Positions 4,575-61,529 of a stretch of 64,000 bases of DNA are shown here, one piece after another. Origin of the DNA: a virus. The translations under genes were made by a program, and so were the position numbers. The notes under the pieces were generated by a model. The model worked only from the letters and a program-made list of their open reading frames with translations. It ran no database searches and was not told where the DNA came from. Each line of letters starts with the position of its first letter. Positions within the stretch are counted from its first letter, which is position 1. The stretch covers positions 1-64,000 of the IMG/VR virus record IMGVR_UViG_3300037541_000696. One strand, 5' to 3'.

Positions 4575-4623
4575 ATACTATCCCATCACCTAAAGCTCCC
4601 GAAAAAATGAAACAACCTGTAAC
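4575..4623 (-). promoter_or_regulatory. Early-type promoter with HLR1-like tandem repeat
   Basis: GTTACAGG-tt-GTTTCATT, then TAGTAT 33 bp from second repeat start. Confidence 0.6.
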
Positions 4624-4648
4624 ATAGGCAAATCAGCATCAGGCGATC

Positions 4649-5716
4649 ATGGCAACCATTGGAGATCAGCAGCTAACACTAGCCGATGATTATGCCGAAG
4701 CATTGGATATGCTAAGCGATCGTGCCGTAGAAAATACTAAAGCGGCATTAGTTCGAGCGCTAAGACGTACTTTGAAAGATCTGCGCCGATATTATTCTGA
4801 CTTCATTGATCCTGAACTTAAAAAATATCGCTCTGCTGATGGCAAGATGCGTAGGCCAATGTCATATTCTATTGCTGATAGCAATGCAAAATTCACTGCG
4901 CTAATGCAAATCGCGCAATCATATTTCCCAGAAGAAGAATTGAATCGTGTCACAATGCAATATAAAAAAGACTTTACAGAAGCCGTGCAGCTTGGCAGTA
5001 ATTTAGGTAAAGAATTGGCGCAACTTATTGATTCAAATAACAAAGGCAATGGAATGTTTGTTGGTGCCAGCAAGGAAGCCGTGATTGGCGCTGCTAATAC
5101 AGCATCGGCTTATATCCGCCGTGAAGTGGAAACCTTTCGTGATGATATTGCACGCATTGTGCAAGATGGTATCGGACGCGGAAAAGGATCTAAAACATTA
5201 GAAAAAGATATAAGGATTGCATTGCTCGGAGCGAAGGATCCTGACGGTATTACGCAACGCCTAGGGATGCTCCGACGGGCTGAATTGATTGCTAGATCTG
5301 AACTCGCTAATGCTTATGTTAATGCGCAAAAAGCAGCAGCAGGTAGGAATGAGTATAAGTATGGGCGGTTTATTGCAACACAAGATGAAAGAACCTGTCC
5401 CTATTGCGCTTCTAGGCATGGTAAGATATATTTATTAAGCGAAATGGTCGGTACGCAGCATCCGCGTTGCCGATGTAGTATTTCACCAGTTTCTGATCTT
5501 GCAGTAGAAGAAACTGATCCAGAATTGCGCCGTGAATTATTGCGAGAGGATTTTTGGGAACAGGAGCGCAATAATGTTTGGCAAAAATTTGCTGATACCA
5601 AAGGATGGCCCTTTGAAAAGGCGTCTAAAGTGCTAGAGGATCACCTAAAAAAACCATCAGCCAGTGAGAAACGGCTTTATCCTGACATCAAAGTAGCGCC
5701 GCAGCCTATGGTTTAA
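4649..5716 (+). CDS. Head morphogenesis protein, SPP1 gp7/MuF family
   Basis: RAELIARSE...DERTCPYC...HPRCRCS signature. Confidence 0.9.
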   Translation: MATIGDQQLTLADDYAEALDMLSDRAVENTKAALVRALRRTLKDLRRYYSDFIDPELKKYRSADGKMRRPMSYSIADSNAKFTALMQIAQSYFPEEELNRVTMQYKKDFTEAVQLGSNLGKELAQLIDSNNKGNGMFVGASKEAVIGAANTASAYIRREVETFRDDIARIVQDGIGRGKGSKTLEKDIRIALLGAKDPDGITQRLGMLRRAELIARSELANAYVNAQKAAAGRNEYKYGRFIATQDERTCPYCASRHGKIYLLSEMVGTQHPRCRCSISPVSDLAVEETDPELRRELLREDFWEQERNNVWQKFADTKGWPFEKASKVLEDHLKKPSASEKRLYPDIKVAPQPMV

Positions 5717-5718
5717 TT

Positions 5719-5768
5719 GTTACGGATTATTACGGAAGTCCACTGGCAAGCCGCTAGGCCTGTAGGAT
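5719..5768 (+). promoter_or_regulatory. Early-type promoter with HLR1-like tandem repeat
   Basis: GTTACGGA-tt-ATTACGGA, TAGGAT 34 bp downstream. Confidence 0.65.
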
Positions 5769-5815
5769 GTAATCACTAGGGCAATTCAGCGCTAGTATTA
5801 ACTCCCTCAGGTGAA

Positions 5816-6142
5816 ATGAGCAACGCAACACCAGATCGCATCGCAGTCGGAGATGTAGACTTTATTCGCGCTGATCTCTGTCAGCAGGTTGAAACCGGCA
5901 ATCGCCAAGTGATCGTAGTTGATCGCGGGTGGATTTTTGCCGGTGACGCAACCCAAACAGACACAGAAATCACGCTTTCGCGTGTTGTGCATGTGTTTAA
6001 GTGGGAAAGCATTGGATTTAATGGAATGATTGCCAATCCAAAATCTGACAAGGTGGATCTTCGCAAGATGACAAATCAGGTCAAAATACCACGTGCGTCC
6101 GTGATTTTCGCTATCCCCGTTAGCGAAAACTGGGGACTCTAA
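5816..6142 (+). CDS. Small beta-rich Sm-like protein (DUF6948-like)
   Basis: VIVVDRGWIFAG...ITLSRVVHVFKW pattern; followed by GxG-repeat genes. Confidence 0.55.
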   Translation: MSNATPDRIAVGDVDFIRADLCQQVETGNRQVIVVDRGWIFAGDATQTDTEITLSRVVHVFKWESIGFNGMIANPKSDKVDLRKMTNQVKIPRASVIFAIPVSENWGL

Positions 6143-6206
6143 TTGTTTCGTGTCTCAAGGCGCACGAACTTGTGCGCTTTGAGATTTTTTACTTTTTAGA
6201 GGTTTT

Positions 6207-6419
6207 ATGTTTGATTCTGCATTCTTACCTGTTGGCTATGGCTATGGCAATGGCTACGGCACCGGCAATGGCGATGGCAATGGCAATGGCGATGGCAATG
6301 GCTACGGCTATGGCTATGGCAATGGCTACGGCACCGGCAATGGCACCGGCAATGGCGATGGCTTCGGCATCGGCGATGGCTGCGGCTATGGCACCCCTTC
6401 AATTAGGAGCAGAAAATGA
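6207..6419 (+). CDS. Glycine-rich (GxGx) peptide 1
   Basis: GAGG RBS upstream; FLPVGYG...CGYGTPSIRSRK. Confidence 0.75.
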   Translation: MFDSAFLPVGYGYGNGYGTGNGDGNGNGDGNGYGYGYGNGYGTGNGTGNGDGFGIGDGCGYGTPSIRSRK

Positions 6420-6667
6420 TGACTAATTCTACATTCTTACCTGTTGGCTATGGCGATGGCGCCGGCGATGGCAATGGCGATGGCTACGGCTACGACTGCG
6501 GCTATGGCTATGGCGATGGCACCGGCTATGGCAATGGCACCGGCTACGGCACCGGCTACGGCACCGGCTATGGCGATGGCAATGGCCATGGCGCCGGCGA
6601 TGGCGATGGCGATGGCCACGGCTACGACTGCGGCTATGGCACCCCCTCGATTCGGCCTAGAAAATGA
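6416..6667 (+). CDS. Glycine-rich (GxGx) peptide 2, tandem paralog
   Basis: FLPVGYG...CGYGTPSIRPRK; ATGA overlap with both neighbours. Confidence 0.75.
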   Translation: MMTNSTFLPVGYGDGAGDGNGDGYGYDCGYGYGDGTGYGNGTGYGTGYGTGYGDGNGHGAGDGDGDGHGYDCGYGTPSIRPRK

Positions 6668-6900
6668 CGGTCAAGGAGCTTGTCGGGTGGCTGACAGCGT
6701 TTGAAGATCAAGACGCAGAAGTCAAGGTGATTAAACACGTATGTGGCTCAAGCTACTACGATCAAGGCGGCACAGTAGAAGTTGTGTCACTGGAGCCTGA
6801 TGTTATGAACTATACTGATCTCCGAAGCAATCCATTTATCAAGGAAGATTGTTTGTGCCACGAATCACATACACTGCTACTAGGCGAGCTAAACGCCTAA
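6664..6900 (+). CDS. Hypothetical protein (MTVKEL-type small phage protein)
   Basis: Translationally coupled ORF. Confidence 0.65.
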   Translation: MTVKELVGWLTAFEDQDAEVKVIKHVCGSSYYDQGGTVEVVSLEPDVMNYTDLRSNPFIKEDCLCHESHTLLLGELNA

Positions 6901-6928
6901 AACTAAACTCATCGCACTGAACATTGTC

Positions 6929-7105
6929 ATGACTGCATTCACGGACAGAGAAAAAGCAATCATAAAAATGTATGGGGAAAGGGTACCGATTGGTGGCAGA
7001 CTTGCAGGTCTTGCGATTGGAATAGTTGCTTTTTTTGCACCAGGCCTTACCGCATACATGATCGCAAAGACAATAAGGGAGAATCCTGAGCACTTTCCTT
7101 GGTAG
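6929..7105 (+). CDS. Small membrane protein (58 aa, not in ORF track)
   Basis: MTAFTDREKAIIK...GLAIGIVAFFAPGLTAYMIAK...FPW; one hydrophobic segment. Confidence 0.55.
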   Translation: MTAFTDREKAIIKMYGERVPIGGRLAGLAIGIVAFFAPGLTAYMIAKTIRENPEHFPW

Positions 7106-7118
7106 GGAATTGATTGTC

Positions 7119-7128
7119 GGGGAAAAAT
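7119..7128 (+). promoter_or_regulatory. Late promoter box variant GGGGAAAAAT
   Basis: 32 nt before ATG 7151. Confidence 0.65.
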
Positions 7129-7150
7129 AATAACAGCATCTCCTGGTGCA

Positions 7151-7330
7151 ATGGCAAAATCCAAAAAAACGAAAGCCGCCAAAAAAGTCTCCTCTGTAAT
7201 GCACGAATGGAAGACCGGCACGCTTCATAGCGGCAAGGGTGGCCCTGTGGTGACCGGTCGTCAGCAGGCTATCGCAATTGCACTGGCTCAAGGTCGCAAG
7301 GCTGCTACAAGGGGAAGACGGAGAAAATAG
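7151..7330 (+). CDS. Small basic protein, DUF6496-like (59 aa, not in ORF track)
   Basis: MAKSKKTKAAKKVSSVMHEWKTGTLHSGKGGPVVTGRQQAIAIALAQGRK... Confidence 0.8.
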   Translation: MAKSKKTKAAKKVSSVMHEWKTGTLHSGKGGPVVTGRQQAIAIALAQGRKAATRGRRRK

Positions 7331-7340
7331 CGGGAAAACT
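7331..7340 (+). promoter_or_regulatory. Late promoter box CGGGAAAACT
   Basis: 34 nt before ATG 7365. Confidence 0.75.
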
Positions 7341-7364
7341 GAGCCAGTGCAGCTCCCGCATCAC

Positions 7365-7541
7365 ATGATGTACGCCAAAAAGCCCGTAAAGCCTAGCAAA
7401 AAAGGCGGTGGCAAGCCCAAAGGCGGTGGCAAGCCCAAAGGCGGCGGCAAGCCCAAAGGCGGCGGCAAAAAAGGACCTTCCAAGCCAAAGAAGCCAGGCG
7501 GTGGCATGTTTCCTGACTATAGTTCCGTCAAGAATGCTTGA
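7365..7541 (+). CDS. Small Lys/Gly/Pro-rich basic protein (KPKGGG repeats)
   Basis: Start re-assigned to 7365 from late-box spacing. Confidence 0.7.
   Translation: MMYAKKPVKPSKKGGGKPKGGGKPKGGGKPKGGGKKGPSKPKKPGGGMFPDYSSVKNA
7401..7468 (+). repeat. 18-bp tandem repeat (~3.8 copies)
   Basis: AAAGGCGGYGGCAAGCCC units. Confidence 0.9.
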
Positions 7542-7768
7542 CCATGATCAGGACTCCGAGCCTTAGGATTATTCAGGCGATTGCGGTTTGTGTTTGCAGT
7601 CGCAACAAAGAAGGAGCACTGCAAGGGTTAAGGATTCTGTTGGATCTTCCTGATGCAGAAGATGCGGAGCGCATGATTAGATTGCTATTGAATGAACTAA
7701 GTCCAGGCGATCGCTTTTGGCTTGGTACAATCAATGGTGAACGAAAAAATGCTGTTATGATGACTTAA
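7538..7768 (+). CDS. Hypothetical protein
   Basis: Coupled ORF between late genes. Confidence 0.6.
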   Translation: MTMIRTPSLRIIQAIAVCVCSRNKEGALQGLRILLDLPDAEDAERMIRLLLNELSPGDRFWLGTINGERKNAVMMT

Positions 7769-7769
7769 A

Positions 7770-8276
7770 ATGGTCGTTCAACTTCCTGACTTAGATGTTT
7801 CTTGGCGGCAAACTAGTGCGATCAATGATCGTGAATTGATCAGGACATACCTGAATTATCCTGCCTCAGAATCGAGCTTAACGCTAATCATTCAGCAGAT
7901 GAATAGCGTAGCTTCGGTGTCGCCAGAAACTGTTGAGCGCATTCAGGATTGGCTAGATGAAATTATCGAACTTGAAGAAATTCAAGCTGATGCGGTTATT
8001 GATGGGACTGCACATCTTGGTAGTGTAACAGAATATGAAGGCGTAATTCCTGGCACATCACCAACTAGGGATCAGCAGCTCAGCCAGGCCGATACGCTGT
8101 CATGGGATACGAGTGTATTAAAGGCGCGATATTCGTTTGATGGCAGCACTCGAAGCACCGCTCAGGGTCAGCGAGACGAGCGCAGGGGATCCCTCGTGTC
8201 ACGCATTTCTCAAGCCATAGGGATTCCCTATAATTCAAACAATGGCTACGGCGGTGCAACACTGATTAGGGGATGA
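7770..8276 (+). CDS. Putative head-tail adaptor/virion protein
   Basis: Helical protein in head-neck context; function inferred from position only. Confidence 0.45.
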   Translation: MVVQLPDLDVSWRQTSAINDRELIRTYLNYPASESSLTLIIQQMNSVASVSPETVERIQDWLDEIIELEEIQADAVIDGTAHLGSVTEYEGVIPGTSPTRDQQLSQADTLSWDTSVLKARYSFDGSTRSTAQGQRDERRGSLVSRISQAIGIPYNSNNGYGGATLIRG

Positions 8277-8877: not shown

Positions 8878-8926
8878 ACTGTAGCGCATACTGCTTTGAT
8901 TACTCCATGATGCAACAAATTGAAAC
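8878..8926 (-). promoter_or_regulatory. Early-type promoter with HLR1-like tandem repeat
   Basis: GTTTCAAT-tt-GTTGCATC, TACAGT 33 bp downstream; back-to-back with late box 8930. Confidence 0.55.
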
Positions 8927-8929
8927 AAT

Positions 8930-8939
8930 CGGGAAAACT
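8930..8939 (+). promoter_or_regulatory. Late promoter box CGGGAAAACT
   Basis: 33 nt before ATG 8963. Confidence 0.75.
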
Positions 8940-11761: not shown

Positions 11762-12309
11762 AAGTCGGATACAGGTTAGAGCGCGAAAGGTTGCATCGAG
11801 AAGAGTTGACCACGGCACAGCTTGCGTTAATTCAAGCAGAATCAAATCGTAATAAAGAAACAAAGCCTGAGCCATTTAAGCTACAAGATTTTTGTTTCTT
11901 TGCTGATACGACTGAAACCCCTAAGCCGCCAAGTGCGGCTGGTGCAGCCATGCTTGCGCTTTTAGAACAAGATTTATTCCCACATTGGGCAATCAATGGC
12001 CCTTGGCTGGAAGACTTGGAGCGGGAAGGGAAGGGCGTTGATCCGCCCCATAGGCTGTGCTGGGCAGCCGAGGATGCAATCCTATTGGCTCCGTGGCGCC
12101 ATGATTCGAGCCACTGGAGCGGGATGCTAATTGCCATGGCAAGCGCCGTCGGGCAAGTGCGGCATTTTTATGATGAAAAGGGAGAGTCTATCATTTTAGA
12201 AGTTCCTGTAAATGCAGTGCCAAAAAATGCCTTTTCTGGCGGAATGGCTGATGCAGTGTTAGAAATAAAATACGGGAAAACTAGCACAGAAAGCACCATT
12301 CTCCGATGA
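11614..12309 (+). CDS. gpT portion of tail chaperone gpGT (frameshift product)
   Basis: Stop-free -1 frame ...FAKLYWEAAKIWPG...LHREELTTAQLALIQAESNR...FCFF. Confidence 0.75.
   Translation, partial: KASRGDAVYCDRPNFAKLYWEAAKIWPGREEFSRRWFGHLPGWYVIKSIEVGYRLERERLHREELTTAQLALIQAESNRNKETKPEPFKLQDFCFFADTTETPKPPSAAGAAMLALLEQDLFPHWAINGPWLEDLEREGKGVDPPHRLCWAAEDAILLAPWRHDSSHWSGMLIAMASAVGQVRHFYDEKGESIILEVPVNAVPKNAFSGGMADAVLEIKYGKTSTESTILR
12273..12282 (+). promoter_or_regulatory. Late promoter box CGGGAAAACT
   Basis: 33 nt before ATG 12306. Confidence 0.75.
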
Positions 12310-13166
12310 CCACCACAGTCGCTTACACGCCTATTCTGAATCGTCAGCACTATATCGTGCCAATGCGGATGAGTAGTATTGTGCTGGAGGATGCTGCTAC
12401 TGCCGCCGCGAGCAATGGCTCTGCGTTGAGCGCATGGCTTGATGCTGCTGATGCCATGAGTGGCGTAAAAACTGTCACCACATCTGGCAGTGGATCCACC
12501 TTTGAAATCCTGATCGGATCTGAAACGTTTACGATTACAAACGTTGCACGATCAACTGGTGTTGTAACGCTTACGTTTAGTGCTAACCCAACAGGGAAGG
12601 TTGCTGTTGGTGACTTCATTAAAGTTGCTGCAGTGACAAATACTGGTGTCAATGGCACTTTTGAGGTGAAAAGTGTTACAACAACGGGCGTAACCTACGA
12701 TCAATCTGGAACCAATATCACGGCCGGCGTTGATACAGGAACTGCAATCAGTGGCGTATATCCACTAAATGGATTGGGTAGGCCAATTCTGCTCAACAAT
12801 ATCACTGGTGCTCCGCTTTCTAGTAATACAAATACAGAAAGTGTAATCACTGATGATGCTGTAACGCTTGGATCTACGGTTACGGTTGCACTAAGCGATT
12901 CGCGCAGTGCTGCCGTGAAAGGCATGACTGTTCATCGCAGTCTTGATCACAAGATAATGCAAATCTTTGACACATTTGGAACCGCTGAGCAACTCGCATT
13001 CAAGTATTTGCGAGTTGGGCCAGGTGGCACCACAGAAAAGAAACTGTGCTATGCACAATTTTCTTCAATCTCCGAAGAAGGCGATAGCGGAACTCTCGCT
13101 AAGTTCAATACAACGATGACAGTCTTGGGTCGTGTTTATACAATCTTTGACAATACTGCAGCCTAA
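12306..13166 (+). CDS. Major tail (tube) protein with inserted beta-rich domain
   Basis: Thr/Ser/Val-rich; own late box and strong terminator; adjacent to tail chaperone. Confidence 0.7.
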   Translation: MTTTVAYTPILNRQHYIVPMRMSSIVLEDAATAAASNGSALSAWLDAADAMSGVKTVTTSGSGSTFEILIGSETFTITNVARSTGVVTLTFSANPTGKVAVGDFIKVAAVTNTGVNGTFEVKSVTTTGVTYDQSGTNITAGVDTGTAISGVYPLNGLGRPILLNNITGAPLSSNTNTESVITDDAVTLGSTVTVALSDSRSAAVKGMTVHRSLDHKIMQIFDTFGTAEQLAFKYLRVGPGGTTEKKLCYAQFSSISEEGDSGTLAKFNTTMTVLGRVYTIFDNTAA

Positions 13167-16606: not shown

Positions 16607-16655
16607 ACTGTAGGTCAAAAAATGATAGGATGCACGTACTGTAACAATACGTCAT
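16607..16655 (-). promoter_or_regulatory. Early-type promoter with HLR1-like tandem repeat (nblA block)
   Basis: ATGACGTA-tt-GTTACAGT, TACAGT 33 bp downstream. Confidence 0.6.
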
Positions 16656-17085
16656 GGCGTTGCCGATCAATTCGTATCAAATCTTCGACCTGCTGGCGGC
16701 CGACTCAACGCTGACGGCACTTCTAGGCGTGCATCGTCTCAGGGATGGCACCACAAGGCCCGCACTGGCGCACCTATGGCCCAACGAGGCGATAGAGGCG
16801 ACATCAGAATCCGCAGGGGTGGAGGTCATAGTCTACCGGTCTCCCATGGGATCCGCAACGCAGCTTGCGGAGACCGGGCAGATCGTGCCAAATTTAACAT
16901 TCAAGCTTGCCGTGACGCAATGGAAGCCAATATCTGGTGCATATAATCAATCTGCTGTTATTAACAGGCTGCTTCAATTGCTGCCAGGCGCAAACGCATC
17001 GGACGTAACAATAGATAATTTAACAGCCGGATTGCAACAACATATCATTACATGGCAATGTGTGGCCGCTGTGATTTTGCCATAA
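16654..17085 (+). CDS. Tail terminator-like protein
   Basis: IFDLLAADSTLTALLG N-terminus; precedes tape measure. Confidence 0.55.
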   Translation: MALPINSYQIFDLLAADSTLTALLGVHRLRDGTTRPALAHLWPNEAIEATSESAGVEVIVYRSPMGSATQLAETGQIVPNLTFKLAVTQWKPISGAYNQSAVINRLLQLLPGANASDVTIDNLTAGLQQHIITWQCVAAVILP

Positions 17086-41806: not shown

Positions 41807-41813
41807 AATTTTG

Positions 41814-42876: not shown

Positions 42877-42917
42877 CGCTTGCAAGTTTTAAGATGCCTT
42901 TTCAAAGCTGAGGTTAC

Positions 42918-43525: not shown

Positions 43526-43577
43526 GGTGGTGATTGAATAAATAAATGAACAGATGTTGGGATAGGCTCCCGGTAAG

Positions 43578-43802
43578 TTACAGATTGCTATCAGCACATT
43601 CTAGCAACCTAGTAGCCCTTGCGGCAGAGACAACGCCTGATTCAGGGCCATTCTCAAGAATGGCTAGTGCCAATCGTTGAGCTTGTAAATCACTTAGCGC
43701 TGAATGTTGCGCAATAAAGCTGCTAAGGCAAGAGACGGTTTCTGTTAATTCTTGACGGTCTTGCTGTTGATCAAACCAGTCGCGAGTGATTGTGTCGAGC
43801 AT
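43578..43802 (-). CDS. Hypothetical protein
   Basis: ORF with hairpin leader. Confidence 0.55.
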   Translation of the reverse strand: MLDTITRDWFDQQQDRQELTETVSCLSSFIAQHSALSDLQAQRLALAILENGPESGVVSAARATRLLECADSNL

Positions 43803-43856
43803 AAAAGATGTTTTGATGTGATTGCCGGGATAGGCTCCCGGCTGGCCATAAAGTCT

Positions 43857-44837: not shown

Positions 44838-44885
44838 GACAGTGGAAGCAGGGTTTATGTCAGGCTTTGTCCGCCTGACTCCCTT

Positions 44886-44936
44886 ATCCTATGCGCAGGA
44901 GGCTTTGAGGCGGATGGTGTTGTCACAATCTGTCGC
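44886..44936 (-). promoter_or_regulatory. Early-type promoter with HLR1-like tandem repeat
   Basis: GCGACAGA-tt-GTGACAAC, TAGGAT 35 bp downstream. Confidence 0.7.
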
Positions 44937-45120
44937 AATTGCGCTGACGCTCCCTGGCGCCGAAGGCGCGGCGCCTGCGGCTGATGTCCTGGCGGCGCAA
45001 GAAATTGCGGTACCAGTGCTCCCGGCGCTGCTCCCGGCGCCAGGCCAGGGCCAGCATTCCAAGCAGCTGGGCCATGATTACCGAGCACATTCCAGCGGCA
45101 AACCAGTCGAGTGGGGTCAT
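44923..45120 (-). CDS. Small membrane protein with Arg-rich tail
   Basis: GAGG RBS; ATGA overlap with ASCH gene. Confidence 0.55.
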   Translation of the reverse strand: MTPLDWFAAGMCSVIMAQLLGMLALAWRREQRREHWYRNFLRRQDISRRRRAFGARERQRNCDRL

Positions 45121-45542
45121 GACACCTCAAGCAGCGCTTCCCTGGTCTCAGCCGGCAACCCCCCCACTGGCACATCAAAGAATCCCAGTTGACCGCGCCA
45201 TGGCGTAAACGGCAGTGGCCTTGGTTTTCTCAAGAGAAAACCATAGCTGCCTATGAACCACTCGCTGCAAGATGTAGTAACGCAATCGTAAATCTCAACG
45301 CTTCCAATTATTCCCCCGCGTTGGATGTTTTCGCGGGTGACACCGGCTTCCATGCCCTTGAGGCCTGCGCCAGCGCCTTGAGCAAGGTCCCATGCGTGGG
45401 TCCACTCCGTTGGGGTCATTGTTTTTGCCGCATGAATTAGAATTCGACCGCGCACCGTGGTGGGCCAATCGCGGTTTTCGACGTTCTTGCCACCGTAGAT
45501 GATCATCCACGCCCATGGTTGGCGGATGCTTAGGGCGAGCAT
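45117..45542 (-). CDS. ASCH domain protein
   Basis: LSIRQPWA..GKNVENR.W..RGRILIHA, GGIIGSV, GQLGFF. Confidence 0.9.
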   Translation of the reverse strand: MLALSIRQPWAWMIIYGGKNVENRDWPTTVRGRILIHAAKTMTPTEWTHAWDLAQGAGAGLKGMEAGVTRENIQRGGIIGSVEIYDCVTTSCSEWFIGSYGFLLRKPRPLPFTPWRGQLGFFDVPVGGLPAETREALLEVS

Positions 45543-46082
45543 GGTTGCCCCTCCAGCTCAGCCCTTTTCGTGGCGTCAGGAGAATGGTTGCCTGGCACTG
45601 GGAAATGATAATGCGGCAGAAAATACTTATCAGCGTGGTATGGCACGCGTAAGTGCCAGGAAGCTGGGACATCCCGCTCCCCGTCAGCACTCTCAAAGCA
45701 CCAGCATTCGCCATCCTCGTTGTAGAAAGGACTGCTCTTCAGGATTGACCTATTGCCCTTTCTGACTGGCTCAAGCGCAGGGCCAGCCTTCATCACGGCT
45801 TCCATGTGATCCCGCGCCAGCCCCCGCAGCATTTCCCGGCGCTCCTTCACGGCCAGAATCTGCTTGATATCTGTCGCCAGTTCCGCTGCCATGTGGTTCA
45901 CCATGCGCTCGGTCAGCTCACTGATGAAATTCAGCACCGCCTTTTCGGCGGCGGTCTTCACTTGCGTCTCAAAATCCGTCATGTGGTTCTCCGGGTTTTG
46001 TGGTGTGTGGTCTAACCCTGCAATGAAGGCGGCGAACCTGGTGCGGGTTGCGGACGCTTAGGGCGAGCATGGTTGCCCCTCC
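45522..46082. repeat. 33-bp direct repeat pair (45522-45554 and 46050-46082, 1 mismatch)
   Basis: Duplicates RBS plus first 7 codons of the ASCH gene. Confidence 0.9.
45530..45982 (-). CDS. Hypothetical, probably chimeric protein between the repeats
   Basis: GGAG RBS; helical N-half, unrelated-looking C-half. Confidence 0.5.
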   Translation of the reverse strand: MTDFETQVKTAAEKAVLNFISELTERMVNHMAAELATDIKQILAVKERREMLRGLARDHMEAVMKAGPALEPVRKGNRSILKSSPFYNEDGECWCFESADGERDVPASWHLRVPYHADKYFLPHYHFPVPGNHSPDATKRAELEGQPCSP

Positions 46083-46238
46083 CACCGCCGCCCACCACTC
46101 CCGGGAAGACTTAGCCTCCCAGCACTCCTGGCAGATGATGGCGCCATTGTCGTCGGGCCATTCCTCGGCTGGATCCGGGATGGTGTTGTTGCAGGTGTTG
46201 CAGGTGGTCAATGGCAAGCGGGTGGTAGTGTTACTCAT
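45969..46238 (-). CDS. Small CxxC-CxxC zinc-finger protein
   Basis: CNTC...CQEC; C-terminus runs into the repeat copy. Confidence 0.55.
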   Translation of the reverse strand: MSNTTTRLPLTTCNTCNNTIPDPAEEWPDDNGAIICQECWEAKSSREWWAAVGGATMLALSVRNPHQVRRLHCRVRPHTTKPGEPHDGF

Positions 46239-46301
46239 GAGCGGTAGGTGGTGGAGCGAAGGTAATGCGAGAAGGCCCCCGGCGAAGCGTAAATGATTAT
46301 A

Positions 46302-46697
46302 CTAGATTCTTTGCCAGCACCTTTGAGTGAAAGCATTGGCCTGCTCAAATTGATGGTCCAGCGCTCGACCCACCGTGCCATGATATAGCAACAAGACCCA
46401 CTCATATCCAATTTTTTCTATTTCTTCCTTCGATAAAATTACTCCTTCGGGAGTTCTGTCTTTCAGCTTAAAACAGAGAAGGCGGTCTCCCGGCTTAGGG
46501 ATCACTTGAATGCGGGAGACGGGAATCGTTCTTCCCAAAAGCCCGCCCATAAGGGCCGCTGTAGAATGATGACCAACAGCAGACTCCCACTCGAACTCTT
46601 GAAGATTGAGCTTTGCCGATTCCAAGTGGATAGCAATCGCTTCCCAGATGCCGTCACATCCTGAAGGGATAACGGTTGTATTCATTACGTAAAGCAT
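46302..46697 (-). CDS. acrIII-1: DUF1874/STIV B116 family; AcrIII-1-like cA4 ring nuclease
   Basis: MLYVMN, SAVGHHSTA, SRIQV..PGDRLL..L..RTPEG.IL..EEI. Confidence 0.85.
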   Translation of the reverse strand: MLYVMNTTVIPSGCDGIWEAIAIHLESAKLNLQEFEWESAVGHHSTAALMGGLLGRTIPVSRIQVIPKPGDRLLCFKLKDRTPEGVILSKEEIEKIGYEWVLLLYHGTVGRALDHQFEQANAFTQRCWQRI

Positions 46698-46740
46698 GGC
46701 GAAAATGGTTAATGAGTGTGGTTAAGAGTTGGAGATTAAA

Positions 46741-46914
46741 TTAGCGCCGGTTTCGGTTGTATTCAGGATAAGTGCCTTTGCGCTTTTCTTTCTCTGCAAC
46801 GCGTTGATCTTGGGTAAGGTAAAGACCCAAGCTAATCACAAAGTATAACCAATAGACCACGGCAAAAATAGCCAGTGCGCCTACAACTGCAAGAAAATTA
46901 AGCAAAATGGTCAT
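46741..46914 (-). CDS. Small membrane protein (57 aa, not in ORF track)
   Basis: MTILLNFLAVVGALAIFAVVYWLYFV... Confidence 0.55.
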   Translation of the reverse strand: MTILLNFLAVVGALAIFAVVYWLYFVISLGLYLTQDQRVAEKEKRKGTYPEYNRNRR

Positions 46915-46956
46915 GGGTCTGTGGCGAGGTGTGGATGATGGGATGTGGTGCGCTAC

Positions 46957-47184
46957 TCAGGCAACAAGGGTGTAGTTGTCAATGTCTTCAATGGGCACAA
47001 CGCGCCATTCCTCTCCGGGATTGGTGCCGATGCCACATTCACGCAACTCTCGCGCTACGACCTCAGCATCCTCAACCGTGGGCCATTCGTTAACGGCAAC
47101 TCGATAGACAATGGCATCAGCGTTAACGCCATTACCAAGGGGGTCGGTCCAACCGTCATGAGTGAAAAGTAGCAGGGCGAACAT
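46957..47184 (-). CDS. Hypothetical early protein
   Basis: Start re-assigned to MFALLL; first gene after promoter 47295-47344. Confidence 0.55.
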   Translation of the reverse strand: MFALLLFTHDGWTDPLGNGVNADAIVYRVAVNEWPTVEDAEVVARELRECGIGTNPGEEWRVVPIEDIDNYTLVA

Positions 47185-47294
47185 GATCAAAACGCAAGGG
47201 AAAATGGTGTGCAGAGATTGCCGACTGCTTGGCAGGCTCCCTGCGGGCCAGGGGCTGAGCCCCGGAGGAGGCCCGTTGGCCTCCCGATGGACAC

Positions 47295-47344
47295 ACCATA
47301 CCCACCGCACACCCCAACCACTCACTTCTGTTGTAAACCGTCAC
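47295..47344 (-). promoter_or_regulatory. Early-type promoter with HLR1-like tandem repeat
   Basis: GTGACGGT-tt-ACAACAGA, TATGGT 34 bp downstream. Confidence 0.6.
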
Positions 47345-47598
47345 AAACCTCGATAACCGTATCACTGTGCTACACTTCCGCAAAGATCACATCATAGTTT
47401 ATGGATGAAAAGTTTTTGCGTGAATTTAAGAAGGTTTCGCGCAATCTTTATGGCGCCGCTTGGCGTGTTGCAAATGGGACGCATATTACAAGAAAAGAAA
47501 TAGATGAAGACATGGCTGGGCTTAGAGCAGCAGTGACCGCGTACGGTAATCTGGTGCATTCTGAAGCTAAGCCTCAATAGGCGTGATATAATGAAGTG

Positions 47599-47702
47599 GT
47601 GGGACGGAGTGCGAATCCCCGACGGTCGCCCTAGGCCGGCGAATGAGAGGTTCGACTCCTCGCGGTCCACTGCGGGTCGCACGACTGGCGCTTTCGTCCC
47701 AC
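47599..47702 (+). ncRNA. Structured tRNA-like (T-loop) RNA/leader upstream of thyX
   Basis: TATAAT at 47587; closing stem GTGGGACG/CGTCCCAC; internal TCGCC/GGCGA and GAGG-TTCGACT-CCTC hairpins. Confidence 0.6.
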
Positions 47703-47721
47703 AAACATTATCACTTCCAGT

Positions 47722-49440
47722 ATGGATCCACTTTTTCGCGTTGAAGTCATCGCGCAAACGCCTAATCCTCAGCAATGCATGTACGCTGCAATGCATCAGG
47801 ATTACAGTGAAGGTTTTGTGTATGATGAGCGTGATAAATGGCCGGATGAAACTAAAGCTGGGGAGATCTGTGTAAATAGACTATTGAAAGGAGAACGTGG
47901 GCACTATGGGTGCTATTCAAGTGATACTGAAGTTTTAACTTCTGAGGGTTGGCTCGATTGGCCTAGTGTTACCGCGTCATCTATGCTTGCAGCAGTCGAT
48001 ATTCATACTAATCTAATTTCATTTGAAAAACCTACAGCGCTTCAAAAAGTACAACTTAATGCGGGCGACAAGCTTTATAGTCTTGTTAGTCAAAAGCTAG
48101 ATATATTAGTAACACTTGATCACCGTATGGTAATAACTACAAAAAAACAAGGAAACAATTGGACTGAGCCGTTTTTTGCTTCCGCCAGTGAGGTGGCGGG
48201 CAGGGCTGTTCGCTATAGGCTTGCTGGTAAACTAAAAACACGACATGTTCCTTCGCATTGCCCAAGCGGAGTTGACTTGGTTTCATTGTTTAAGCTTGCA
48301 GGGTTTTTCTATGGTGACGGATGCAGGTCTAACAATATAAATCCAGGATGTCTTCGCTTTCGCCTCAGAAGGGCGAGAAAAATAGCTTATCTCAAAAGTC
48401 TAGGCTTTCATATTGATCAAATGCAGTCTGATAGATTCACGTTAAGAGAAAAAGAAGTGTCTCAATGGGTGCATAAATACTTTACTCATGAAAACGGTAA
48501 GGCGATACCTTCATTTATCATGCATTTACCTAGCGGTCTTTTTGATGCTTTTGCAGATGGATTAAAAAACAGCGATGGGACACTATCAAATGATACATGG
48601 TGTTTTGATTCAAAAGAAAAAAAATCTCTTGATATTTTGCAAGCCGCTTTTCATCTTAATGATAAGCTTGCGTCTTTTTCTTTAAATAATCCAAACGAAG
48701 GAGTTGGGCATGAAAATCATGCTCCTTGCTGGAGGATATATATTTCATCACGCGAGCCATACGCCAGAAGCGAAGTTAATCAAAAAGGAAGAACCCGTGG
48801 ATCAGAGCAGTTAATAAATTATCAAGGGTATGTTTACTGTGCAACTATTTCCACAGGCGCTTTACTCGTAAGGCGAAACAATAAGCCATTTATTTCTGGA
48901 AACTGTTTAGAACATCCACAAATTATCCTTAACTGCGGACACTTTCCGCACTCCGTGATGCAACAAGCTCGGACACACAGAGTAGGCGTGAGTATGGATT
49001 GTCAGTCAATGCGCTATACCGGTGATCGCATTTGCAAAGCCGCCAACGGTGAATTGCCTCTTGAAGAAGTATTCTACTTGCGTCCATTAGGTCATTATAC
49101 CGACCGTCAAGGCAAAAAATATGAATACACCAGTAATCATCGCGCAAAAGATCTTTGGCTTTGCAAATTTGCCGCTGAACGCTATCGCGATCTTCTGTCG
49201 CAAGGTTTTGCTGAAGAACACGCACGCGGAATCCTTCCTTTTGATTATAGGCAACATTTTGTAGTCAGCTTTAACGCAAGGTCATTTATGCACTTCCTAG
49301 ACCTACGCGCAAAGCTTGATGCTCAGCTAGAGATCCGTCAGCTATGTGACTTAATGTGGCCGCACTTTAAGGCTTGGGTGCCGCAGATTGCGGAATGGTA
49401 TGAACAGGCCAGGCTGCATAAGGCACGGTTGGCGCCATAG
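47722..49440 (+). CDS. thyX: Flavin-dependent thymidylate synthase with intein
   Basis: HYG|..|CLEH, QARTHR, QSMRY, EHARGILP, LDLRAKLDAQLEIR. Confidence 0.95.
   Translation: MDPLFRVEVIAQTPNPQQCMYAAMHQDYSEGFVYDERDKWPDETKAGEICVNRLLKGERGHYGCYSSDTEVLTSEGWLDWPSVTASSMLAAVDIHTNLISFEKPTALQKVQLNAGDKLYSLVSQKLDILVTLDHRMVITTKKQGNNWTEPFFASASEVAGRAVRYRLAGKLKTRHVPSHCPSGVDLVSLFKLAGFFYGDGCRSNNINPGCLRFRLRRARKIAYLKSLGFHIDQMQSDRFTLREKEVSQWVHKYFTHENGKAIPSFIMHLPSGLFDAFADGLKNSDGTLSNDTWCFDSKEKKSLDILQAAFHLNDKLASFSLNNPNEGVGHENHAPCWRIYISSREPYARSEVNQKGRTRGSEQLINYQGYVYCATISTGALLVRRNNKPFISGNCLEHPQIILNCGHFPHSVMQQARTHRVGVSMDCQSMRYTGDRICKAANGELPLEEVFYLRPLGHYTDRQGKKYEYTSNHRAKDLWLCKFAAERYRDLLSQGFAEEHARGILPFDYRQHFVVSFNARSFMHFLDLRAKLDAQLEIRQLCDLMWPHFKAWVPQIAEWYEQARLHKARLAP
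47911..48903 (+). mobile_element. Intein (331 aa) with LAGLIDADG-type endonuclease
   Basis: Starts CYSSDTEVLT; block B VTLDHRM; LAGFFYGDG and GLKNSDG; ends ISGN before Cys+1. Confidence 0.95.
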
Positions 49441-49445
49441 GAATT

Positions 49446-49495
49446 GTTTCGTTATGTAACCAATCAGCGGAATAACTGCCTAACCAAGCTACGCT
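49446..49495 (+). promoter_or_regulatory. Early-type promoter with HLR1-like tandem repeat
   Basis: GTTTCGTT-at-GTAACCAA, TACGCT 34 bp downstream. Confidence 0.5.
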
Positions 49496-49540
49496 TTGCA
49501 ATAGAAGGCGACACTTTTCAACCGCTTTCAAAATACAACA

Positions 49541-49915
49541 ATGAATTACAATTTCACCATCAGCGACGTCATGAATTTTGCTGAGTCTAAATCTAGTATT
49601 TTAGGCTGGAAAGCGTTTGGATGGGAAAAAGTTGGTGATGATTCAATCGTCACAGGATCAGTTCCAACCGGCACCTATCGCTCAGGGCCACGCAAAGGTA
49701 GGCCAAAATTTGCCGGCCCGGAATCCAAGGTCATAGTTACAAGAGCTGAGCTTGAAGCCCATGCAGCCGCCCACGAATCAAACACTGGCAAGTGCTGGGA
49801 TTGCAAAGGATCGGGCCAGACGATTGCTGGATGGAGCAAAGACAATGGCACTCGATATGAGACGTGTTCACGATGCAAGGGAACAGGCATCGTTTCAATA
49901 TCAGACGCAAGTTAA
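49541..49915 (+). CDS. Protein with DnaJ-type CxxCxGxG zinc finger
   Basis: CWDCKGSG...CSRCKGTG. Confidence 0.75.
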   Translation: MNYNFTISDVMNFAESKSSILGWKAFGWEKVGDDSIVTGSVPTGTYRSGPRKGRPKFAGPESKVIVTRAELEAHAAAHESNTGKCWDCKGSGQTIAGWSKDNGTRYETCSRCKGTGIVSISDAS

Positions 49916-49916
49916 A

Positions 49917-49948
49917 TAAAAAAGGGGGCGTAATTGCCCCCTTTTTTA
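49917..49948. terminator. Bidirectional intrinsic terminator
   Basis: A6-GGGGGC-gtaatt-GCCCCC-T6. Confidence 0.85.
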
Positions 49949-50012
49949 TTTGAGAAAGCAGTAATCAGTGCTCATTTTTGTGAATCAGCGAGTTCAGTGA
50001 TTTAATCTGGTG

Positions 50013-51943: not shown

Positions 51944-52815
51944 AATTGTGTACCAAAAGTAAACTTTACATTGCGCTTACGATTGACAATATCTAGCATA
52001 CCTTCCGCCCAAATGTTCTCACCGCCCTTGCCTGCGCGGTAGGACGCCTTGTGCGCCTCGCCGACTAACGCCCTTGCGCCAATTTCTTTTAATCTTTTAT
52101 ACAACCTTTCGTCTGACAGCCCAACGTCAATCTTTCGATTCAATACAGCCAAGCCAAGAAGCAATATATGATGCAAACTTACATCATCAAGAGATGCCAA
52201 TTCACATGCAACTTTAAAAATCTCCCTGAATTTACCTGGATTTTGATTATAGACTCGCTGGCACGCGGCAATGCAAGTTATAGTTCTTGTTGACCCTGTA
52301 TCAGGCCTGATCACAAAACCATTTTCTTGTGCAGCATCTGCAATTTGCCGTGCCGTACTGTCGCCAGCAATCAATAATGCTTTGAATTTAGTGTAAGCAG
52401 ACACTGCTTTTCGATTTGTATTTATTTCTACAAATGCCGTTGCTTCGTGATGGATGCCTTGTGATTCAAATATCATGCAAGGAAGATGAGTAATATCCGA
52501 CCTTTTCCATGCCGCTAATGTTCTATTTTGACCGTCAACAACTACATATTTACCATTCTGTCGCTCCATAACACTAATCGCTCCGCATGATTCCCAGTTC
52601 CATTCCGCTGCAATGCTTAAAATTTTGCTTGAAACAACATCACGCTGATATGACCTATCAACAAACAAAGATCCCTTTGGGATCCACTTGAATGATCCAG
52701 TGTCGCCAAGCGGGCGCCATTTGTATGTTGTTACCTTGTCAAGTAAGGTATTTCCAAATGCAATTGTTTGTTCAAAACTTGAGTCAAACGAAACAATCTC
52801 AGAAGAAATGCTCAT
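51940..52815 (-). CDS. ParB-like (DUF6551-type) protein
   Basis: VDRSYQR, VVVDGQNR, EATAFVEINT. Confidence 0.75.
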   Translation of the reverse strand: MSISSEIVSFDSSFEQTIAFGNTLLDKVTTYKWRPLGDTGSFKWIPKGSLFVDRSYQRDVVSSKILSIAAEWNWESCGAISVMERQNGKYVVVDGQNRTLAAWKRSDITHLPCMIFESQGIHHEATAFVEINTNRKAVSAYTKFKALLIAGDSTARQIADAAQENGFVIRPDTGSTRTITCIAACQRVYNQNPGKFREIFKVACELASLDDVSLHHILLLGLAVLNRKIDVGLSDERLYKRLKEIGARALVGEAHKASYRAGKGGENIWAEGMLDIVNRKRNVKFTFGTQL

Positions 52816-53411
52816 GGAGCTGTGGCCATGTGTTTCCAAGCCATCCTAGCCAAATTCAACGCGTCAACCCAAGTCTGTAACACTTCGTCACCATTGTGTA
52901 ATTCAACACGGATCTTTTCAGATCCAACCCAAATCACGCTGCACACATCAATCATCACGCCACGATCTGCCAGGGTTGCTACAGCGCCCCCTAGCTCCGC
53001 CCATGGCGCTTCTGGATGGATCCTGGCACCATCAGGCCAAATCGCAAGCAAGCCCAGTCCTTTGCTACCTAAATTTGCTGCAATATCTATTGTAACAGCA
53101 GCTTCATGTTGTGGAATTATTAGATGTATCATTGCGCCTAAAATTTCCATCCTTTCCCATAGCTGATGACTTAACAATGTATCTATCATTGGTCTAACAG
53201 AATTAAATTTAGCGGATGGCTTCCAATTCTTATTTTTTGCGTAATTTATTGCCGCTGCACGTAATAGCTTATTTCTGCCAGAAAAAGACTGATCAATGCC
53301 GTAGCCATCATGAATGATGTTTATTACAGGTTTTAAGACTTTTTCTCCTGCAAGATACAAACCCTCTTCTGGCACGGGTTTTACATCATCGCCATTAAGC
53401 CAATTTACCAT
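52812..53411 (-). CDS. Hypothetical protein
   Basis: Coupled ORF in replication operon. Confidence 0.6.
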   Translation of the reverse strand: MVNWLNGDDVKPVPEEGLYLAGEKVLKPVINIIHDGYGIDQSFSGRNKLLRAAAINYAKNKNWKPSAKFNSVRPMIDTLLSHQLWERMEILGAMIHLIIPQHEAAVTIDIAANLGSKGLGLLAIWPDGARIHPEAPWAELGGAVATLADRGVMIDVCSVIWVGSEKIRVELHNGDEVLQTWVDALNLARMAWKHMATAP

Positions 53412-55425: not shown

Positions 55426-55450
55426 ACTCTAGCAGCTTTTTGAGATGCAC

Positions 55451-55499
55451 GTAACAATTTGTGACAAGTCGCGCAAGGCGTTGTCCGTGATGCTATGGT
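55451..55499 (+). promoter_or_regulatory. Early-type promoter with HLR1-like tandem repeat (divergent junction)
   Basis: GTAACAAT-tt-GTGACAAG, TGcTATGGT 33 bp downstream. Confidence 0.65.
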
Positions 55500-56148: not shown

Positions 56149-56230
56149 GAGAGCATGGCGGAATTGGTAGACGCGCTGGGTTTAGGTTCCAGTGACTTCG
56201 ATCGTGGGGGTTCAAGTCCCCCTGCTCTCA
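56149..56230 (+). tRNA. tRNA-Leu(TAG)
   Basis: Acceptor GAGAGCA/TGCTCTC, anticodon loop TTTAGGT, variable arm, GGTTCAAGTCC; no encoded CCA. Confidence 0.95.
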
Positions 56231-56234
56231 TTTT

Positions 56235-56307
56235 GGTGGCCTAGCAATCTGGAGAATGCAGTGGCCTCATAAGCCGCCGAAGATGGGTTCGATCCCCATG
56301 GCCATCA
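56235..56307 (+). tRNA. tRNA with CAT anticodon (elongator Met or Ile2)
   Basis: Acceptor GGTGGCC/GGCCATC, loop CTCATAA, GGTTCGATCCC. Confidence 0.9.
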
Positions 56308-56472
56308 TCACAAGCCCATGACAAGGGCAAAAAGCTTGCAGCGCAACGGGTTTCAAGATTTTGTGCAGCTGATCCCATGACGATTTTTGCCCCTTGGATT
56401 TCGGTTTTTATGCCATACAGCTTGCAGATCGTTTCATTTTGTGCCAAAATCATAGAAATTTTATGACGTGGC

Positions 56473-58013: not shown

Positions 58014-58142
58014 TGGTAGAATGCTTTTACATCGCAATCACGATAGTGCTGCTGCCAATGATTATGGTTGCACTTGTCGCATTTGTTCGTGATAAATTTA
58101 ACAAAAATGGTCATAGACCGAAAAGCATTCCTGGATGTTGAT

Positions 58143-58192
58143 GTTTCAATTTGTTAAAGCGGCTAGTCATTCATTTGTGTTAGCCTTATCGT
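58143..58192 (+). promoter_or_regulatory. Early-type promoter with HLR1-like tandem repeat
   Basis: GTTTCAAT-tt-GTTAAAGC, TATCGT 34 bp downstream. Confidence 0.55.
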
Positions 58193-59833: not shown

Positions 59834-60027
59834 AACCAGACAGCTATCACATCAGCGGCCCCATGGATGACCTATGCAAGTCTCATGGCCTATGGATTGG
59901 TGACGGAAATGGTTTGAGCCCATTGATATACTTCAAAAAGCCCGCTTGGATTAAAGATGAAGAAATGTGAAGACAAATCGTGGCGTCTGTTAGGATTACG
60001 CTTCCTTCTGGAGTTGAAATTCAATGA
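59830..60027 (+). pseudogene. Small gene with in-frame TGA at 59968-59970
   Basis: Frame continues 18 codons to a TGA overlapping the next ATG. Confidence 0.5.
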
Positions 60028-60296
60028 ATGACTCTGATCAGGACACTAAAGCCAAGGAGCCTACATGGTTTCTTTTATATGAAGACACTAGCTGTGATGG
60101 AAAAGGACCCGCGAAATATATTGGACGAACTACTGATAAAACTGTCGCATTTAATCATTGCAAAAAGCGACAAAATCATAGTAATCTTTATGTGCATTAC
60201 GGAACTCGCCATGTAATGGCAATTACGGATACGAAAGAGATCATAATGGATGTCACATGCCCTTCTGTTTGTGGATGCACATGGGAAGAATTGTGA
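60024..60296 (+). CDS. Hypothetical protein
   Basis: WFLLYE.TSCDG.G...YIGRTTD. Confidence 0.6.
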   Translation: MNDSDQDTKAKEPTWFLLYEDTSCDGKGPAKYIGRTTDKTVAFNHCKKRQNHSNLYVHYGTRHVMAITDTKEIIMDVTCPSVCGCTWEEL

Positions 60297-60334
60297 TTTT
60301 TTAATTTATCAACACTACCGCAATACAAAACACC

Positions 60335-61075
60335 ATGACCAACCAACCTAATTTTTCTTGCTGGGAAGCCCTTCAAAACCTTCGTGATCTTGGCGCAGGC
60401 GCACCATTTGTTGATTGCTTGTTTGATTTGCACGACATGCTTATGGCGCAAGAAAATAATGCTGAAATGCGGCGTAAGCAAGTTACAGAAAAAGACAAAG
60501 ATATTGAATCAGTGAAAAGTGATAGATTGCGATCCGAAAAAGTCAGCGATGCTATATGCGAGCTTGATGATTTGTTTAATATAAGTTTTCCTGAGTCACT
60601 AGAAAGCGCAGTTGCTTGCGACTTCGCTGGTGATGGCTCAAATTGGCGGCAAGACAGAGCAGAGTTGTTTACAGGAAAAATTGAACGCGTGATGCGCCAC
60701 TTGCAAGAAGTTAAAAACAGATTACAAGGTATGCCGGTTGCAACTAAAGAGCACAACAATGATCTTGAACATACAATTACTATTGATGGCGTTGTTTATT
60801 ATAGCGCTAAGCATCATAAGCCTAAGGACGGCGAAGCGGTTACTGGGTACGCAAAAGGAAATGATTGGATCAGTTATTCATGTTTGGGTCCTGTGACGTC
60901 CGATCCTGTTTGGCGACCAGTTCCTTTTACTGTTTGGTATGAACACGATAAATCGTGTTGGTATACTTACGATTACCTTAGACAGAGTGATTGTAAAATC
61001 AACGTAATTGCATGGACACATCTTCCTCACCCAAAAAGCGCTGAAGAATTTCAAGATTTTTGCAATAGCTTGTAA
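60335..61075 (+). CDS. Hypothetical protein, DUF551-like C-terminus
   Basis: VIAWTHLPHP. Confidence 0.6.
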   Translation: MTNQPNFSCWEALQNLRDLGAGAPFVDCLFDLHDMLMAQENNAEMRRKQVTEKDKDIESVKSDRLRSEKVSDAICELDDLFNISFPESLESAVACDFAGDGSNWRQDRAELFTGKIERVMRHLQEVKNRLQGMPVATKEHNNDLEHTITIDGVVYYSAKHHKPKDGEAVTGYAKGNDWISYSCLGPVTSDPVWRPVPFTVWYEHDKSCWYTYDYLRQSDCKINVIAWTHLPHPKSAEEFQDFCNSL

Positions 61076-61077
61076 TC

Positions 61078-61476
61078 ATGGGACTTGATCTTTCTATCGA
61101 CGTTTTTTCAGGTGGTTATGTTGCGTTCGACCGGCTGCGTGCGTTCATTTGTGAGGCTACTGGCGGTAGCTGGCCGCCTCATTCTGATCAAACATTAGAT
61201 CCTGAGATTTGGTATATTGATGATGCGTTTAGCAAAAGTACTCATCCTGGGCTTTGGGAGCTTTTGTCACATTCAGATAGCATGGGTGAAATTAGTCCAT
61301 CGCTATGTGCATCATTAGCAAAGGATCTGGAAGAATTGCTGCCGGCCATGATTAAAATGGACTCAATTGGTCAGGGTCATATTGCAAACAATGGAGGATA
61401 TGTTCCGATTGTGAAAAAATTGATTATTGGATGCAAGGCTGCTGCTGATATGGGTGAGCCTTTGTGTTTTAGGTGA
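61078..61476 (+). CDS. Hypothetical protein (MGLD..HSD..GEI family)
   Basis: Motif common in small phage proteins. Confidence 0.7.
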   Translation: MGLDLSIDVFSGGYVAFDRLRAFICEATGGSWPPHSDQTLDPEIWYIDDAFSKSTHPGLWELLSHSDSMGEISPSLCASLAKDLEELLPAMIKMDSIGQGHIANNGGYVPIVKKLIIGCKAAADMGEPLCFR

Positions 61477-61478
61477 TT

Positions 61479-61529
61479 GCGACAGTTTGTTACGGATCTT
61501 GGCTGTTGGCAGGATGCGTGCCTTAGGAT
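61479..61529 (+). promoter_or_regulatory. Early-type promoter with HLR1-like tandem repeat
   Basis: GCGACAGT-tt-GTTACGGA, TAGGAT 35 bp downstream. Confidence 0.7.

Follow-up and report, generated by a model that had tools for sequence, protein, structure and literature searches.

Cyanophages can tie their promoters to host factors that report on the physiology of the cell. Specifically, NtcA and PhoB sites precede some genes of T4-like cyanophages, and such arrangements concern single auxiliary genes (hli, psbA, pstS). HLR1, the binding element of the host regulator RpaB, has also been reported in cyanophage genomes, according to a statement in PMC6525291 that cites Riediger 2018. In cyanobacteria, psaA, psaD, and psaI are RpaB-activated photosystem I genes (PMC13421787), and activating HLR1 elements are centered at −66 to −45, with a peak near −51 (PMC6525291, PMC13421787). 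Here, we focus on a 64,000-nucleotide stretch of viral DNA, called the window, which comprises bases 1–64000 of IMG/VR virus record IMGVR_UViG_3300037541_000696, and on an HLR1-like tandem box that recurs in it upstream of non-virion genes. Like the cases above, this arrangement would connect phage promoters to a host factor that senses cell physiology; unlike them, it encompasses a whole non-virion promoter class, and it occurs in a siphovirus-like phage. Our literature search returned no description of a whole phage promoter class built on HLR1. Dependence of these putative early promoters on host RpaB is the best reading of the sequence, and we consider it moderately likely.

The analyzed unit was the whole 78,499-bp record (46% G+C), and the gene map is a crude open reading frame (ORF) call made for the present analysis. 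A sequence-only reading of the window had listed 14 promoters of shared architecture. At every one of its coordinates there are indeed two GTnAC-type repeats 10 bp apart, the second of which begins 33–35 bp before a TAnnnT motif. Scanning adds one promoter within the window, at 52843–52894 (−), and three boxes beyond it in the same record, starting at 71250 (+), 72351 (+), and 72666 (+), for a working catalog of 18. Every one of the 18 sites has a repeat period of exactly 10 bp. The fuller coding-strand consensus is aTTGTnACrgaTTGTnACrg, followed after 28–30 nt by a −10 element with the consensus TAtgaT and, 6–7 nt past the −10, by a conserved CA; a −35 hexamer is absent. Leave-one-out scores are low for 37257–37306 (4.2 bits) and 49446–49495 (6.6 bits), both of which retain the spacing. 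Another box-like match, at 56428 (+), has no −10 and probably reflects chance.

The boxes are placed like promoter elements: they are enriched, intergenic, oriented, and set at a fixed distance from TAnnnT. Enrichment was assessed over the whole record against 100 dinucleotide shuffles. The consensus TTGTnAC-N3-TTGTnAC occurs 10 times at ≤1 mismatch (0.27 expected) and 25 times at ≤2 mismatches (6.0 expected, standard deviation 2.6), and a position weight matrix yields 18 matches at ≥14 bits, compared with 0.9 expected. Intergenic DNA, which amounts to 8,885 bases (11%) of the record, holds 17 of the 18 boxes, and all catalogued boxes are oriented toward a downstream gene. TAnnnT starts 46–48 nt after the start of the box at 15 of the 18 sites, versus 4% of random positions. 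The box at 71250 has GATGAT in place of TAnnnT, and at 72666 the −10 lies exactly 10 bp further away, giving a spacer of 39 nt. Thus, both the motif and its offset to the −10 stand out from shuffled or random backgrounds, which bears out the spacing regularity noticed in the sequence-only reading. Nearly all non-structural genes would be served by these promoters.

The architecture is shared by close relatives. Six related contigs, whose DUF932 protein is 89–92% identical, keep the box, the −10, and the leader, and their 27-nt spacers diverge. In two complete relatives whose DUF932 protein is ~90% identical, the boxes number 20 and 17. When the three genomes are pooled, TAnnnT occurs at offset 46–48 in 42 of 52 boxes and at offset 57 in 3, with 0–3 occurrences per offset elsewhere. 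This second spacing class, exactly one helical turn away, suggests a bound protein that is confined to a single helical face. Promoter modules are also duplicated locally. The boxes at 42104–42124 and 42523–42543 share an identical 21-nt sequence. A second pair, 72351 and 72666, has an identical −10 and leader with spacers of 29 and 39 nt, respectively, so that one helical turn has been gained or lost.

For comparison with HLR1, we used the consensus KTTACAWW-NN-KTTACAWW, which has 16 specified positions. GTnAC is palindromic, so its orientation can be read only from the flanks. TT on the coding-strand 5′ flanks makes the box a direct, not an inverted, repeat. On the opposite strand, the box reads GTmACAAw-NN-GTmACAAw, and the invariant “TT linker” becomes HLR1 positions 7–8. 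The 18 boxes average 3.5 mismatches to HLR1 on the opposite strand versus 4.6 on the coding strand; the background mean is 10.2 of 16, and the probability of 3 or fewer is 0.00026. Read in reverse, 13–18 of the 18 sites agree with HLR1 at each of 14 specified positions out of 16 (1, 2, and 4–8 of each half), and the best match, at 49443–49495, has two mismatches. Thus, the HLR1 likeness claimed by the sequence-only reading is supported by comparison, but the better match falls on the strand opposite to the one it had read; that opposite-strand match is new here.

The predicted placement of the boxes likewise fits that of activating HLR1 sites. If transcription starts 7 nt after the −10, as we assume, the box center lies at ~−50.5, within the reported range. 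Like the activating class (PMC6525291, PMC13421787), the phage boxes consist of a pair of 8-nt direct repeats, spaced by a 10-bp period and matching at 14 of 16 positions, center ~50 nt upstream of the predicted start, and have no −35. Unlike that class, they carry A or C rather than T at half-site position 3. Two other differences concern quality and number: host photosystem I elements have one good and one degenerate half, whereas both halves of the phage boxes are good, and, unlike host HLR1, the phage element is present in 17–20 copies per 80-kb genome and would drive nearly all non-late units.

To place the boxes among host promoters, we compared regions upstream of psaA in 19 cyanobacterial genomes and of psaD and psaI-L in four genomes each. 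For psaA, four picocyanobacterial genomes share a conserved GGATTGAACCTTTGTAAC followed, after 29–30 nt, by TATACT or TATGCT, and 12 of 15 other cyanobacteria have wTTTGAATTATTGTTAA followed, after 28–31 nt, by TAnnnT, mostly TATAAT. The corresponding arrangement at psaD is TTTGTTGACGGGTGTGAA, 40 nt, and TAGyTT, and at psaI-L it is ATTGAAyTTTTATGTCrC, 38 nt, and TACAGT. The psaA boxes (16 of 19 genomes) and the psaD and psaI-L boxes have the phage orientation, with the HLR1-like sequence on the non-coding strand, and no −35. Their spacings match both phage classes, the common one of 28–30 nt and the one of 39 nt found once (72666). Moreover, the proximal half of the phage box at 37257–37309, ATTGTTAA, is identical to a half of the conserved psaA box. 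At HLR1 position 3, most host psaA, psaD, and psaI-L boxes have A, C, or G instead of T. The deviations that had been flagged as leaving the factor's identity in doubt (GCGAC, GTGAC, ACAAC) fall mainly at this same position, which is variable in host boxes too. The predicted geometry of the phage box is that of RpaB-activated photosystem I promoters.

The hli genes of candidate host-clade genomes show a repressing layout, in which a forward HLR1 (TTTACAAnnnGTTACAAT) overlaps the −10. These hli operators are the sole recurrent near-perfect matches to the phage consensus across those genomes. In many non-picocyanobacterial genomes, a second reverse HLR1 (ATTGTTATnnTTTGTAAA) lies ~90 nt farther upstream of psaA, 16 nt before TTGACT. 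Dual psaAB promoters are known in Synechocystis, and the second element fits that arrangement.

A partial parallel exists in the Prochlorococcus siphovirus P-SS2 (GQ334450.1). Two near-identical promoters, at 12307–12323 and 12668–12684 (−), lie ahead of small genes and consist of a reverse HLR1, TTGTrACTnnTTGTAAA, followed by 5 nt, TTGACA, 17 nt, and CATAwT. As in the phage studied here, the reverse-oriented HLR1 ends 28 nt before the −10; unlike here, a consensus −35 stands between the box and the −10, and only two or three such sites are present.

The survey of other promoter classes bears on when the factor that reads the boxes must be available. In intergenic DNA, no canonical −35/−10 promoter was found at ≤2 total mismatches, apart from a doubtful one close to a gene junction, at 73705. 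Just one other element recurs: CGGGAAAACT, which occurs in nine exact copies, always on the plus strand ahead of virion genes, and is presumably read by a phage sigma factor. At one site, the early box at 8909–8929 (−) directly abuts a late box (Table 1), and the two promoter classes form a divergent pair. The box promoters are, by this survey, the only recognizable non-late class, which argues for a factor that is present upon DNA entry. No OmpR-type domain was found in six frames of the phage, in keeping with the host-factor side of the sequence-only reading. Pfam and PHROG scans of ~40 early proteins, many of them orphans, revealed no regulator match besides a cyAbrB-like protein. Apart from the sigma factor, the cyAbrB-like protein is the only recognizable phage DNA-binding regulator, and it is a weak candidate for a phage factor that would act in place of RpaB.

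Our proposal is that the non-virion genes possess activator-dependent promoters modeled on those of host photosystem I. A head-to-tail dimer of phosphorylated host RpaB would bind both half-sites of the tandem box, ~50 nt upstream of the start site, and would recruit the RNA polymerase of the host, the role it plays at psaA, psaD, and psaI-L. Non-late genes would thus be transcribed upon entry of the DNA into a cell containing phosphorylated RpaB, i.e., in low to moderate light and with an oxidized acceptor side. High light or redox stress would dephosphorylate or release RpaB, and early transcription would fall. The virion genes have their separate box, presumably read by the phage sigma factor.

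If RpaB is the activator, the whole early program of the phage depends on a single, essential sensor with which the host monitors photosynthetic electron flow, providing a direct molecular link from light/redox state to the start of infection in lake picocyanobacteria. The boxes would also constitute a natural set of strong, light-tunable promoters with stabilizing leaders. The picture of an activating RpaB site would be widened to sites that are reversed, have A or C at position 3, and stand a fixed 28–31 nt from the −10, and this widened picture could sharpen cyanobacterial regulon prediction. The hypothesis is easily testable, given the small size and large number of the boxes and the extensive knowledge of RpaB.

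Several points weigh against RpaB. HLR1 position 3 is A in 9–11 and C in 5–7 of the 18 sites per half-site, leaving only 2 with T, so the boxes do not fall cleanly into the HLR1 family. Only 5 of 36 half-sites contain the canonical core TTACA. When 16 host photosystem I boxes are made into a matrix, the phage boxes rank in the top 0.25% of genome positions (median), with just one among the 25 best; conversely, host psaA and psaD boxes receive weak scores, ≤7 bits, from the phage matrix. The phage consensus is not enriched in four candidate host-clade genomes. Nor is it enriched in the cyanosiphoviruses S-CBS2 and S-CRES2. The orientation and spacing of the host sites come from our own sequence comparison rather than from mapped starts, and, for the phage, start sites, early timing, and light response are all inferred. 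The host is deduced only from cyAbrB similarity and lake origin. Finally, most early phage proteins are orphans and could conceal a regulator.

Such a regulator is the most serious competitor. It would be an activator of the phage's own, either delivered with the virion or synthesized very early, that binds the TTGTnAC repeats; resemblance to HLR1 would then reflect convergence or have no bearing. The box is restricted to this phage group and missing from S-CBS2 and S-CRES2, its position 3 is systematically off, and G is nearly invariant where HLR1 permits G or T; these features, together with the preponderance of early genes without a family match and the presence of the cyAbrB-like gene, speak for this explanation. 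However, there is no other recognizable promoter class from which to make the activator first, and no winged-helix, OmpR-type, or CII-like protein emerged from Pfam/PHROG and six-frame scans. The phage lambda CII sites provide a point of reference: they have the form TTGC-N6-TTGC, with repeats that straddle the −35 region. The box shares with them a poor −35 and a direct repeat with a 10-bp period that starts with TTG, but it ends 28–30 nt before the −10, and so lies upstream of the −35 position rather than flanking it. We rejected a CII-type site on these grounds and on the lack of a CII-like protein in the scans. With a phage activator, moreover, it would be mere coincidence that the boxes share their geometry and orientation with host psaA, psaD, and psaI-L promoters, and we regard this explanation as unlikely.

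A different regulator of the true host, for example a second OmpR-family response regulator with a related half-site, would account for the same promoters. Dimers of the OmpR/PhoB type generally recognize direct repeats of 10-bp period, and a single fixed position separates GTmACAAw from KTTACAWW. The named candidates fit poorly. NtcA-activated promoters carry GTA-N8-TAC centered at −41.5; no register of the box gives this pattern, and the box center lies ~9 bp further upstream. LexA-box and CRP-type readings were rejected on register and symmetry, and Rre1 is a LuxR-type regulator. RpaA recognizes the tandem repeat TAAA-N7-TTAA, which has an 11-bp period and lies immediately before the −35 (PMC12916501); it was set aside as fitting worse than RpaB, given the 10-bp period and GTnAC core of the box. 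Furthermore, the same type of box stands ahead of known RpaB targets in every cyanobacterial clade sampled. We therefore hold a different host regulator to be very unlikely.

Most improbable is that the boxes serve mainly as decoys that soak up RpaB and shift the host toward a high-light-like state, in which hli and psbA would rise and photosystem I would fall, with activation secondary: the phage has 18 boxes in 78 kb, versus 0–3 perfect TTACA-N5-TTACA pairs in the 2.4–2.9 Mb of candidate hosts, and its paired half-sites are far more numerous and better per kb than those of candidate host genomes, but the strict distance and orientation to the −10 and to downstream genes mark promoter elements rather than free decoys, and no box clusters occur away from promoters. 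Decoy and promoter functions are not mutually exclusive. We can imagine, as a quite unlikely elaboration, that the ~18 high-quality sites are doubly used, as early promoters and as a replication-amplified sponge that strips RpaB from host promoters. Were this so, new photosystem I synthesis would be shut down, and hli and psbA would be derepressed even though the phage itself has no such genes; the light/redox state of the host would then both gate infection and be rewritten by it.

The box promoters frequently come with a leader element. About half of the promoters in the three genomes specify a GC-rich 5′ leader hairpin with a GAGA-type loop, typically GGrGGCA-GAGA-UGCyyCC, that starts 2–5 nt after the conserved CA. 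Beyond those in the window (Table 1), such hairpins follow the boxes at 72351 and 72666. The stems covary across copies and relatives. Among 17 leaders picked by eye, 6 of 7 stem pairs show compensatory changes, a covariation that, given the choice by eye, is supportive only. Stabilizing stem-loops at the 5′ terminus, of the ompA type, and lambda boxB hairpins are the obvious precedents. Like these, the phage hairpins have a GC stem and a GNRA-like purine loop within a few nucleotides of the predicted 5′ end, and they occur on many early transcripts; unlike them, they accompany only about half of the promoters and match no Rfam family, the only Rfam matches being two tRNAs. The simplest reading is that the leader hairpin is a 5′-end stabilizer, which would most likely shield the mRNA from 5′-end-dependent RNases; as an alternative, it could be a boxB-like protein target. 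We also considered the PeSL cassettes of T4-like phages, in which a stem-loop lies immediately upstream of each early promoter. This type was rejected: a terminator-like hairpin is present ≤60 nt upstream at only 4 of 18 sites, and the recurrent hairpin lies downstream of the −10.

Table 1. Box promoters in the window and the gene for the cyAbrB-like regulator (coordinates as in the record).
Feature	Position	Strand	Description
Promoter	4575–4626	−	Box TATGTTACAGGTTGTTTCATT, −10 TAGTAT, spacer 28 nt; 79-residue ORF (4310–4549) in head-gene region
Promoter	5716–5768	+	Box ATTGTTACGGATTATTACGGA, −10 TAGGAT, 24 bits; ahead of small ORFs 5816–8276
Promoter	8878–8929	−	Back to back with late box CGGGAAAACT at 8930–8939 (+)
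Weaker promoter	16607–16658	−	Ahead of small ORF labeled nblA by the sequence-only reading
Weak promoter	37257–37309	−	Ahead of 368-residue ORF; follows cyAbrB-like gene and terminator-like hairpin
cyAbrB-like regulator gene	37359–37922	−	PF14250, 2.9e-20
Promoter with 5′ leader hairpin (41687–41706)	41715–41768	−	
Promoter with leader hairpin GGAGGCA-GAGA-TGCTTCC (42044–42061)	42071–42124	−	
Promoter with leader hairpin (42464–42481)	42491–42543	−	Box identical to that at 42124
Promoter with leader hairpin (44859–44879)	44886–44939	−	Ahead of DUF932 gene; orthologous promoters of five related contigs retain box, −10, and hairpin, with diverged spacer
Promoter with strong leader hairpin (47266–47285)	47295–47347	−	
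Weak promoter	49443–49495	+	Ahead of 124-residue zinc-ribbon-like ORF; counterpart conserved in one relative
Promoter absent from the first list	52843–52894	−	Inside 3′ end of ORF 52812–53411, ahead of DUF6551 gene; conserved in relatives
Promoter	55448–55499	+	Divergent region beside replication-initiator gene; box scores on both strands
Promoter	58140–58192	+	Box GATGTTTCAATTTGTTAAAGC, −10 TATCGT
Strongest promoter, with leader hairpin (61538–61557)	61476–61529	+	Box ATTGCGACAGTTTGTTACGGA, −10 TAGGAT

With respect to the virus itself, megablast against isolated phages found no close relative. The record encodes the virion components portal, MuF-like protein, capsid protein, and TerL, and its TerL and capsid protein are 29–35% identical to those of the cyanosiphoviruses P-SS2, S-CBS2, and S-CRES. 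The datasets listed as matching bases 41000–50000 are DNA metagenomes, from lake, freshwater, and aquatic sources and one marine source, thus almost exclusively lake or freshwater; no RNA dataset is among them. The cyAbrB-like protein is nearest (50–59% identity) to paralogues in cyanobacterial genomes of 2.4–3.0 Mb, which have 3–6 copies each; because its closest counterparts belong to small cyanobacterial genomes, this similarity suggests a picocyanobacterial host. DnaN was tried as a host marker and proved uninformative, its top match (34%) being to a small contig of a Calothrix assembly. The nblA label given to the gene after 16607–16655 is not supported: Pfam PF04485 has no match in six frames.

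Genes for DNA and nucleotide metabolism include those for a sliding clamp, RusA, ThyX, thymidylate kinase, dCTP deaminase, an O-like replication initiator, and a class II ribonucleotide reductase with an intein. The reductase gene, at 62787–64000 and continuing to 66179 of the record, is split by a LAGLIDADG/Hint intein. ThyX is specified by a 572-residue ORF, 47722–49440 (+), in which the Thy1 domain is confined to residues 395–555 (profile positions 53–191); the N-terminus may be extended, the ORF may contain an insertion, or its start may be wrongly set. Farther on, outside the window, 78250–78499 (+) matches sigma-70 region 2, in an ORF that lies downstream of TerL, runs off the end of the contig, and presumably encodes the factor for the late CGGGAAAACT boxes. 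Genes for tRNA-Leu(TAG) and tRNA-Met(CAT) stand in tandem at 56149–56309 (+), and a tRNA-Thr(TGT) gene at 72252–72324 (+) of the record ends ~27 nt ahead of the box at 72351.

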